From Octopus vulgaris (Eukaryota), in NCBI GenBank assembly GCA_951406725.2, contig OX597814.1, positions 26,102,001-26,166,000 of the forward strand: a DNA stretch of 64,000 bases, written 5' to 3'. The translations under genes and the position numbers were made by a program. The notes under the pieces were generated by a model that saw only the letters and a program-made list of their open reading frames with translations, was not told where the DNA came from and ran no database searches. This document shows, in pieces, positions 8,409-55,592 of the stretch. The first letter of the stretch is position 1; every line of letters begins with the position of its first letter.

Positions 8409-8498
8409 CAAACATATGTTTTTACATATATTTATAGAACAGACTGCAGCAAAAAGCTAAAACCATTTTTATTTCACTTTTTCATTATTTCCTATATA

Positions 8499-8911
8499 GA
8501 GTAAAGATTGTTTGCCAACATAACATTGCAGTCCTGGTTTAGGACGAATGTTGCTGCAATTTAGCCCCAGGAGACATTGTCTCCAGCTGGCTATATGACA
8601 TGATCTGTGTCCTTATATTTTCAAACTAGGGATTCTAGCGACCCCACTCAGCTCAAAACAATATCTGTGTATCGCGATTTCTGGGTTATTTCACTTTATC
8701 AGCACAGAATAATTGTTCAGCTAGATTCCCTTGTTCAAAAATATAAGGACACAGATCATGTTGTATAGCCAGCTGGAGACGATGTCTCCTGGGGCTAAAT
8801 TACAGCAACATTCGTCCTAAACCAGGACTGCCATGTTTTGTTGGTAAACAATCTTTGCTCCAAAGTACTGTCGCTAAATATCTCTTGGGAGATTTATAAA
8901 TAGTAATTTTC
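8499..8911 (-). mobile_element. 413-bp insertion with ~140-bp inverted arms, 13-bp TSD and a central hammerhead (PLE pLTR/retrozyme-like)
   Basis: Arms 8499-8639 and 8720-8860 are reverse complements with few mismatches. Direct repeat tatttcctatata at 8486-8498 and 8912-8924. Hammerhead in the spacer. Confidence 0.85.
8664..8708 (-). ncRNA. Minimal type I hammerhead ribozyme motif (G8A variant)
   Basis: Minus strand reads tctgtg CTGATAA agtgaaataaccca GAAA tcgcga TA cacaga: 6-bp stem I, palindromic stem III tcgcga, AUA site. Confidence 0.8.
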
Positions 8912-8934
8912 TATTTCCTATATATTTTTTATGT

Positions 8935-9280
8935 TTTTGCTTTTGCTTGTTTCAGTCATTAGACTGCAGCCATCCTGGAGCACTGCCTTTCTTTTTTAGA
9001 ATTTTTAGTCAAATGAATCAACCCTAGTACTTATTTTTTTAAAGCATAGTACTAATTCAATGATTCTCTTTTGCTGGTCTGCTAAGTTACAGGGATGTAA
9101 ACACACCAACACCAGCTGTCACAAAGATACGCACACACTCACACACGCAAAGACACACACACACACTAGAAGACTTTGGTCAGCCTGAGGCTATAGTAGA
9201 AGACACTTGCCCAAGGTATCATGCTGTACCATGTGGTTGGGAAGCAAGCTTCTTACTTCATAGCCCTGCCTGTGCCTATA
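8935..9280 (-). mobile_element. tRNA-derived composite SINE (reverse orientation)
   Basis: Reverse complement of the copies at 22190-22605 and 50813-51155 (ttgtttcagtcatt...gctatagtagaagacacttgcccaagg). Confidence 0.8.
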
Positions 9281-36129: not shown

Positions 36130-37624
36130 GTCTCATTGATTACTACAGTTATGAATGAATAAATTTATTGAGTTATATCCATGTGTATTCACTCTAGCCC
36201 ACGAAATTTAGCTCATGTGAATCCTAATTTGTAGAACACATATACTCCAATACGTAAGAAGGAAACATTGAAAAATCACTCCTACATTTCCTTTGTCTAT
36301 TGAATTAATACATGAAAAGTGCATTGTTAGTACTACTCAAACAACCAGCCTAGTCTAAGGGCTGTAACTATCATAAATTTCTGCTCACTCAATCAGATGA
36401 AATTTTAGATAAAAGTTGATGATAAATTAATATTTTATTTTTATTTTTTAATAAATTACTTTGATATATATAATATTTTGTAAATTAATACAAGGCAATT
36501 AATTAATACAAATTAATTTTCACATGTATATGAACAACACACACATATACACACACATTGTATGTGTGTGTATGTGTGTGAACATATACGTTTGCATATA
36601 CTAATTTCAAATATTAACATTTTTTGAAGTGGAAGAGATAATTTTGCATAAGGCAAATCAAAACAAAACAAAAAACTATGTTCAAACCCTTAATGAGCTT
36701 ATGGGTAATGACAAGAAAATTGATGATTATCATAAATATCAGCTGGCAACCAGCCAAAGATAAAAGATGAGCTAACAGTTCACCTTTTATCTTTTATATA
36801 ATAAATCTTAACAAGATTTGTTTTTTTCCTTTAAATATCTCACAATTTTCAAAGAAACAATGAAATGCTTCATATAAAATGATGAACTTATTGAAATGTG
36901 CATTTTCATAAACCAGCTAAATGTGGTAAAAAGAAATAATTGCTGAAGCTGTTGAGAGAATTGATTAAGAGGGATTTGAAGTTAAAGTATACAGAGTACA
37001 GCCATAGATAAAAATATTCAAAGTGATTAACAAGCATATTTTACATTTCTACATTAAATTTTGCAAATGTTCTCTGCAGGATACTGGTCAATCATCATCA
37101 TCATCATTCAACATCTGCTTTCTGTGCTGGCATGATTTAGATAGTTTGACTGGAACTGGTAAGTCAGAGAGCTGTACTAGGTTCCAGTCTGATTTGACTT
37201 GGTTTCTACAGCTGGATGCGCTTCCTAATGCAAACTACACCAAGAGTATTGTGGATGCCTCTCATGTGTCACTGGCACGTGTACCTTTTATGTGTCACCA
37301 GCACAGGTGCCTTTTATGTGTCACAAGCAGGGGTGCCTTTCATGTGTCACTTGCACCAGTGCCTTTTACTGAGAACAGTTGTGAAAATTTATTTTATGAT
37401 TACAGTATAAAAAATTTTTACTCATGCTTACATGTTTATTAATTCAGAACTTCTCCCACTTTCAATGGTGTGCATGATGGTGAGTACAAGACTTTCAGGA
37501 TGGGGTGCCAGTCCTTTGCAGACTCAAACTCCCATCTGTTGCTGGTACTTATTTTCAGCAGTGTGGACTGGAGCAATGTGAGTCTTGCTCAATGATACAA
37601 TTTGCTGCCTATATCAGGAATCAA

Positions 37625-38605
37625 ACCTGCTGCCTTGCAAAAGGAATGTGCTTTCATCTGGGTAACATGCACATTGTGAACTGGGGTGCTATCTTGGAGG
37701 AGGTGGACTCCTTTGGTCAGCATGCCATGCCTCTCTGCTTTGACGGCATCCCACAATTTCTGCAACAGAGAAGCATAATATGCCCCGTTAATTGTGGCAC
37801 CCAGAAAATCCATCATCACTCCTCCGTGCTGGTCCCAAAAGACTGTGAGCATCATCATGCCTGCTGAGAGTTGGACACAAGCCTTCTTTTGGAGGTGGTG
37901 AGTTATCATGCTTCCATTGCTTCGACTTGATCTTTGTCTGGGATCATATTGGTGGACTCATGTTTCATGCGGTGTGATAAGTTTGCTGAAAAAGTCCTCA
38001 TTTTCTTGGCACATTGTCAAAAGAGCCAGGGAGTAATTGACTCATTCCAGCTTCAGAAAAGGTGTGGGCATCTGGGGAATCCATCGTGCAGACAACTTCT
38101 GCACGTGCAACTGTTTGTGAATTATTTTTTCCTTGGACCTTACACTTATCTTCACTTATTAGGCTAGTTGCTATATAGTTATGTGGTGATCCTCCAAAAT
38201 GGTAGCTCCTACTTTATGGATGGTGTCCTCATCAATTGCAGAATGTGGTCATCCAGGAATAGAAGCAGTTTTAACCAATGTCTGACCACATTTGAACTGG
38301 TGATATCTGCTCTTGACTACATCATATGATGGTTCATCGTCACCATAACCTTCTTTCATCTCACTGAGAGTCTCTTTTAGTAATTGACCTTTATAGTATA
38401 AGAATCTGATCACTAATCTGCATTCAACTACCTCCATTATAACACCTTAGTTCACTTCAGCAGTTGTAAAAGACAAACTAATACTAGTAGAAAGCTGCAA
38501 TTTACAATGTGACGTGTAGAGACATGTATGATTATACTTGTACAAGTTCCATTTCCTGCAATAATCAAAAGTGAGTCAGAGGAAATCTTTAATGAACACT
38601 CCTTG
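37625..38605 (-). mobile_element. Mariner-family transposon, 3'-truncated
   Basis: TIR (ta)caaggagtgttcattaaag at 38605. MEVVECRLVIRFLYYKG...; SAGMMMLTVFWDQHGG...TINGAYYASLLQKL...LLQDSTPVH. Confidence 0.88.
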
Positions 38606-55181: not shown

Positions 55182-55592
55182 CTAAAAATTATTGCGGAAA
55201 TGTACTGTATGGTCATTCTGGCATTTGAATTTGTGGTAGAATTTAAATGTGTGGTAACAGCGGTGGTTGCATGTGCTTAGTGCCTCGTTATGCTTATTAA
55301 GCAGTGTTGGAGAGTTGTGCTTTAATATTTGAAGTGCCTCCTTCAGGCAAAGCTTGCAGATTGAGCGTTGACCTTGGCAGGGAAGTCCTGAGTCCAGTAT
55401 GGACCATGATAGGGTATAGGGTATATTTGCATTTTTGAGATGATGTATGTGGTTGGTGAATGTTGTAGATTTACTATGTTTATCGTATCTAAAAGAGTGG
55501 AGATGAGTGGCATATCATTGCTTAAAATGCTTTGTTGATTCTATGTATATGGCTGTAGCATTGTGTAATAGGTTAAGGACCGTGCATTTGTA
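55182..55592 (-). pseudogene. PLE GIY-YIG endonuclease domain (one in-frame stop)
   Basis: YKCTVLNLLHNATAIYIESTKHFKQ*YATHLHSFRYDKHSKSTTFTNHIHHLKNANIPYTLSWSILD...CKLCLKEALQILKHNSPTLLNKHNEALSTCNHR. Confidence 0.88.

Follow-up and report, generated by a model that had tools for sequence, protein, structure and literature searches.

Non-LTR retrozymes, in the accounts of Cervera and de la Pena (2020, PMC7229834) and of Li, Clavereau and Pollet (2026, 10.64898/2026.07.22.740005), of which sections are drawn on here, consist of tandem units of 150–450 nt, with those of mussels measuring 350–390 nt. The family described below has in common with them a non-coding tandem unit, low GC, a type I hammerhead, a TSD longer than 4 bp and the occurrence of PLEs in the same genome; this likeness is one of sequence criteria alone, circular RNA and self-cleavage being properties of the known system. 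It differs from them in that most of its sampled dispersed copies consist of two pieces placed head to head, have a tail and end, on the 3′ side, at two fixed internal positions, and neither the main text of PMC7229834 nor the available text of the preprint (10.64898/2026.07.22.740005) mentions inverted retrozyme copies.

Such an arrangement is known from PLE insertions, which in the relevant sections of three reports (Arkhipova 2013, PMC3846280; Craig 2021, PMC8557442; Frangieh 2024, PMC11167929) share with the present family an inverted, 5′-truncated copy placed head to head, a one-sided tail, AT-rich targets and two RT start sites. The TSDs given there are 8–10 bp and the tails 30–40 nt, one case in PMC3846280 comprising a head-to-head PLE terminal repeat (pLTR) with a 31-bp tail and a 9-bp TSD. 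The copies analyzed here differ from these insertions in having no ORF, a longer tail (47–59 nt) and a repeating unit as template. As the origin of the inverted ends and tails of PLEs, self-priming has been proposed (PMC3846280). According to the in vitro results set out in PMC11167929, a purified PLE protein cleaves and extends each of the two target strands, favoring AT-rich DNA, initiates reverse transcription at two sites inside the RNA, the interval between which equals the genomic tail, uses uncut RNA and is predicted to form a dimer.

For the ribozyme, the comparison is with the canonical metazoan type I hammerhead, described by Cervera and de la Pena (2014, PMC4209133) as having a palindromic loop 3 and acting in dimeric form, of which a variant with U3-A8 has already been described (PMC4209133, PMC6155905).

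The locus studied here occupies positions 8486–8924 of the window, the whole 64-kb stretch of DNA that was analyzed. It is most probably (roughly 75%) a non-LTR retrozyme copy, likely inserted in trans by a PLE enzyme, in which two cDNAs were primed at two fixed sites and joined head to head. No paper on the family was found in the literature on hammerheads or retrozymes in octopus or cephalopods; it may nevertheless be listed in Repbase or Dfam, or in the supplements of the papers cited.

The insertion and its 353-nt source unit

The insertion is flanked by two perfect copies of the 13-bp direct repeat TATTTCCTATATA, at 8486–8498 and 8912–8924, and is composed of two pieces of a single unit, numbered such that position 1 is the base directly after the predicted ribozyme cut. 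Piece 1 (8499–8725, minus strand, 94% identity to the family majority) corresponds to unit positions −55 to +171, with its 3′ end at a fixed site termed A, and piece 2 (8720–8911, plus strand, 93% identity) to +31 to about +225/230 (about +228), with its 3′ end at a second fixed site, B. The head-to-head junction at 8720–8725 is a 6-nt overlap, GCTAGA, common to both pieces, and falls inside the extended stem I inverted repeat that is native to the 353-nt unit. The two arms (8499–8639 and 8720–8860) are 141 nt each, 91% complementary and spaced 80 nt apart, and the interval from A to B is present on one arm only, as a 51-nt tail at 8861–8911 on the plus strand. Each arm of this copy consequently has sequence of its own, the A arm 86 nt including the hammerhead and the B arm the tail. 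These dimensions and the perfect repeat agree with the first-pass annotation, which had given arms of about 140 bp, an 80-bp spacer, an extension of about 50 bp and a 13-bp TSD. Folding of the whole element gave a predicted energy of −255 kcal/mol (z = −27, with 0 of 100 shuffles as good), and the spacer folded alone was no better than shuffles (z 0.12). No second copy of the element was found within the 64-kb window, where a scan of ORFs made no exon-like frame evident.

A search of the genome (2.8 Gb, 227 contigs) yielded 3,333 candidates, and the 40 of these that were scored contained 84 matches; a 22-mer motif from the arm had 1,739 exact matches as compared with 0 for its reversed control. 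As the 22-mer is kept, in near-identical form, in only 57 of 149 arms (∼38%), these matches suggest roughly 4,500 arms in the genome, as a rough figure. The longer copies extend into a head-to-tail tandem array with a period of 353, where the sequence upstream of the hammerhead is the next copy of the 353-nt unit, without an ORF. The unit has no coding capacity, its longest stop-free stretches being 48 codons in the sense and 73 in the antisense direction, and in its predicted fold stem I of the hammerhead extends into an imperfect rod of ∼55 bp, with two hammerheads predicted to pair via their palindrome. With CpG sites set aside, the divergence of arms from the family majority is about 4%; the window copy diverges by 6–7%, comparable to its sibling copies. 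The window element is one decayed copy of a dispersed family with thousands of copies, and the interpretation made from the window alone is partly supported, the tandem source unit lying beyond the view of that sequence.

A hammerhead motif and its covariation in sister families

The spacer contains, as first annotated, a type I hammerhead motif on the minus strand (8708–8664), which reads TCTGTG-CTGATAA-AGTGAAATAACCCA-GAAA-TCGCGA-TA-CACAGA, where TCTGTG/CACAGA forms stem I and TCGCGA is the palindrome. From the motif, the cut is predicted between 8670 and 8669. Two changes are seen in this copy, G8A in the core at 8697 and a G>T change in stem II at 8693. Seventy-four copies of the motif were found in a wider survey, of which five with indels were set aside; CTGATGA is present in 58 of the remaining 69 ungapped copies, which bears out the expected CUGAUGA consensus, and the core is fully intact in 50. 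G8 is kept in 68 of the 69, the sole A8 being that of the window copy. Since the window copy retains C3, A8 breaks the core pair and its ribozyme is predicted to be inactive; the uniqueness of the change (1/69) likewise suggests that the window copy is dead, and the earlier suspicion that G8A is inactivating therefore appears likely to be right. An Rfam scan of the window copy and one intact copy gave no hammerhead match in either, so the ribozyme assignment rests on the motif and on covariation.

Two sister families provide this covariation. Family 2, reached via the loose ends of RNA reads aligned to family 1 (that of the window copy), has a 352-nt unit with 937 exact pattern matches (loci L165–L189, e.g. 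L180:1372–1923) and is identical to family 1 in 219 of 366 columns. Family 3, reached via a match beside the PLE locus L109 that had been considered as a link to a partner, has a 362-nt unit (loci L191–L220, e.g. L205:502–1790) and is young, with copies 96–98% alike and mostly inserted in TA repeats. Stem I is TCTGTG/CACAGA in family 1, CGTACG/CGTGCG in family 2 and CTGCA/TGCAG in family 3, and the stem III palindrome is TCGCGA, CTGCAG or CTATAG, and CATG, respectively. Family 1 has C3-G8 as its core pair; among the 12 copies of family 2, 8 have U3-A8 and 4 have U3-G8, and in family 3 U3 is found in 41/41 and A8 in 42/42 copies. Within a set of 12 hand-picked copies, representing two to three lineages only, 94% of cells are paired and 9 of 14 pairs are changed on both sides, as compared with at most 51% paired when the partners are slid. 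Compensatory changes, among them the replacement of C3-G8 by U3-A8, thus preserve the predicted hammerhead fold in the sister families. The core of family 2 reads UUGACAA or UUGACGA, and the palindrome of its stem III, either CTGCAG or CTATAG, changes in step with the core; in family 3, helix III is a single pair with a CATG loop, and its arrays place up to about three units inside one arm.

As set out in the parts of PMC4209133 used here, the metazoan hammerhead shares with these motifs a helix I of 6 bp, a helix II of 3–4 bp, a helix III of 1–2 bp whose loop is palindromic, U3-A8 as a variant of C3-G8 and dimer pairing via the palindrome, which is a prediction for the present family. It differs from them in that the motif found here goes undetected by Rfam, is mismatched in family 1 where helix II begins at its base (A opposite A/G) and continues helix I as the imperfect rod. 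PLE hammerheads are of the minimal form, whereas a real palindromic helix III is present here. Measured against the known retrozymes, the periods of 353, 352 and 362 nt lie within the described range of unit sizes, the 353-nt unit has no coding capacity, the TSDs exceed 4 bp and the type I hammerhead is identified by motif and covariation, without an Rfam match. Further related hammerhead units were seen at L226:241–439 (CTAG loop), L235:3808–4369 (C3-G8 and a CTCGAG palindrome) and L222:6120–6327, and a palindromic insertion of ∼420 bp at L112:5532–5954 has at its center another hammerhead-like motif, distinct from these, whose stem II is long. The hammerhead superfamily in this genome has at least four or five members.

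Fixed ends, variable junctions and the origin of the inverted copies

The architecture of the family was determined from 63 distinct insertions on contig C1, taken from the first 100 listed 22-mer matches and blind to architecture. Forty-eight are head to head, with 5′ ends central and 3′ ends outward (76% raw, or about two thirds after rough correction for the over-representation of two-armed insertions by 22-mer sampling), 15 are one-way and none is tail to tail. The outer 3′ ends form two groups about 56 nt apart, A near +170 (+167 to +177) and B near +228 (+224 to +241), and the 48 head-to-head pairs comprise 40 A+B, one A+A, one B+B and six with one unclassified end, such that 40 of the 42 classifiable pairs are A+B (p = 4e-10 versus free pairing) and have their tail between these two sites. 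The outer ends of family 2 (+169 to +176 and +217 to +225) and family 3 (+178 and +237) are homologous in place to sites A and B, and tails measure about 47–59 nt across the three families. An insertion of PLE type, as first proposed, is consistent with this inverted arrangement and its tail; the tail-to-tail orientation proposed with it is not. No paper describing the rule of one A and one B was found in the literature searched.

The center of the insertions is free. Among the 35 two-piece A+B insertions, which are 139 to 907 bp long, all 35 junctions are distinct, and 20 hold the whole hammerhead. Whether the inversion point is fixed was posed as a question at the outset; its variability, together with the partial retention of the hammerhead, indicates that the hairpin is a by-product of insertion rather than a MITE or a designed ribozyme cap. 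A hammerhead in the loop, as in the first-pass annotation, is not a constant feature of these insertions. Overlaps of at least 2 nt are found at 44 of 64 junctions. The predicted cut site is traversed by 28 of 70 arms, and 5′ ends fall within 3 nt of it in just 3 of 70, i.e. without pile-up. A TSD score of at least 9 was obtained for 24 of 40 A+B insertions as compared with 0 of 150 mismatched flank pairs; a clear TSD is absent from the other 16 and present in only 3 of 15 one-way copies. The TSDs scored in 56 of 98 loci are 9–16 bp (one of 20), mostly 12–15, and all 56 are distinct in sequence, with 73% AT.

According to the preferred reading, tandem arrays would be transcribed into multimeric or circular RNA, and the two strands of the target would be nicked ∼13 nt apart by a GIY-YIG/RT protein, with reverse transcription primed from one nick at A and from the other at B. 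The resulting pair of truncated cDNAs could then anneal by short overlaps, sometimes within the stem I repeat of the unit, before repair, and the stretch from A to B would be left as a one-sided tail. In vitro PLE behavior (PMC11167929, in the sections used here) fits the A/B priming, free 5′ truncation, short-overlap joining and read-through of the cut site that the copies appear to record. That a dimeric enzyme acts on one uncut or circular retrozyme RNA, priming once at A and once at B from opposite strands, is slightly favored. If this is so, the one-A-one-B rule, the free center and the tail would follow from a single mechanism, the self-priming model would be replaced, animal retrozymes would have been shown directly to ride on PLE proteins, and the families would constitute a fossil record of Penelope-type integration.

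An origin of the mirror arm by self-priming within the same family, in which a strand folds back and copies itself and the endonuclease trims the ends at A and B, is unlikely. The short overlaps at many junctions and the native inverted repeat around the hammerhead, which could fold back, are what it would lead one to expect, and variants are common to both arms of one insertion more often than by chance (34 versus a mean of 8.6 and a maximum of 19; in a second count, 9 versus a mean of 2.9 and a maximum of 6). However, the shared variants are only 34 of about 266 per arm, and they fit self-copying, same-template copying or later gene conversion alike. Moreover, each arm of the window copy has sequence that the other lacks, and a fold-back of fixed polarity would place the loop always on the same arm, whereas the A arm is the one with the greater 5′ reach in 18 insertions, the B arm in 13, and the two are within 15 nt in 4 (n = 35). 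This split favors two separate primings over the published self-priming. It is improbable that the copies represent terminal-repeat stumps of an autonomous PLE rather than a retrozyme that propagates separately, even though their architecture equals that of PLE ends (PMC3846280, PMC8557442, in the parts relevant here), PLE copies are frequently 5′-truncated and the partner search reached only part of the PLE loci. What lies upstream of the hammerhead is another copy of the unit and not an ORF; no RT and GIY-YIG ORF between pLTRs was found in the loci examined; a tblastn search with a 781-aa PLE protein gave just four short or distant matches in the family loci L001–L134; and the sole family copy near a PLE ORF, at L221, lies 1.7 kb from it as an insertion of its own.

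The remaining two explanations are very improbable. An ordinary MITE or foldback DNA transposon would account for the flanking duplication and the length of the inverted arms, but not for junctions that differ in every two-piece insertion, asymmetric ends, TSDs of 9–16 bp, one-way copies and tandem arrays, arms both built from unit sequence, or a covarying hammerhead. The symmetric TIRs, fixed interior and fixed short TSD of such elements were not observed and a conserved core was, in line with the initial preference against a MITE. Selection by the host of a ribozyme-capped hairpin RNA at the window locus is hard to reconcile with a divergence like that of the siblings, with a copy that alone has G8A (1/69) and also has a stem II change, and with zero RNA reads on the left flank in two runs that may be of another species; the very stable predicted fold and the presence of family sequence in RNA reads are the points in its favor.

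The component parts of this system are known, and their combination bears on two questions. Mobilization of retrozymes by PLEs has so far been argued mainly from co-occurrence and pLTR similarity, and here the PLE insertion signature itself is borne by retrozyme copies. As to how the inverted ends and tails of PLEs arise, the 40/42 A+B pairs and the 18:13 split provide a countable genomic test, which favors priming at two sites and on two strands and agrees with the in vitro data of 2024 as far as these are drawn on here (PMC11167929). Thousands of such insertions would be sources of double-stranded RNA of 100–400 bp wherever they are transcribed, and head-to-head insertions are easily mislabeled as MITEs.

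PLE loci and RNA reads

The genome is rich in GIY-YIG PLEs, with at least 150 GIY-YIG matches, many of them in 781-aa frames. No coding PLE linked or similar to the unit was found in the part of these 150 matches that was examined, comprising 20 GIY-YIG loci and 25 longer stretches. The abundant PLE family represented by L111:430–5672 has an intact 781-aa RT/GIY-YIG frame (Pfam RVT_1 slightly below and GIY-YIG above the cut-off), preceded by a frame of 359 aa, and direct repeats of 456 bp. A hammerhead descriptor search of the L111 element was negative, and this dominant family was rejected as the partner, having no sequence in common with the unit. A family copy 4 kb from a GIY-YIG match was found to be a separate insertion, and the match beside L109 belongs to sister family 3. 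At L222:2321–5483 there is a 5′-truncated RT/GIY-YIG PLE copy with a hammerhead-like motif, a 766-bp inverted arm of 100% identity and a tail of roughly 26–30 nt, an architecture like that of the family copies; as a candidate partner it was likewise rejected, since its sequence is unrelated to the unit and gave chance word matches only. The PLE family to which it belongs (L222, L229, L230 and L233–L235) has an RT/GIY-YIG frame and a hammerhead-like motif with a GTAC loop in its terminal repeat.

Two RNA runs, which were chosen by species label and may derive from another species, contain 1,943 and 1,685 family reads among 12.9 and 12.0 million records, respectively. These reads, from standard cDNA libraries, are equal in both directions and show no pile-up of ends, and neither run, possibly of other species, has reads on the unique left flank of the window locus. 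A>G differences of ∼25–40% are seen in the reads at positions where genomic copies are almost all A; differences of the C>T and A>C kinds accompany them, and the organism label of the RNA runs differs from that of the contig runs, which are likely DNA, so the A>G signal, as a possible sign of editing, is not separable from differences between species.

A very high-copy repeat, probably SINE-like, begins ∼15 bp to the right of the element (window 8938–9100) and has deep coverage in both the RNA runs and the contig runs. Elsewhere in the window, the minus strand has a frame at 37592–37957 that we take to resemble a fragment of a mariner transposase, and another at 55185–55514 that presumably resembles a C-terminal GIY-YIG/PLE fragment.
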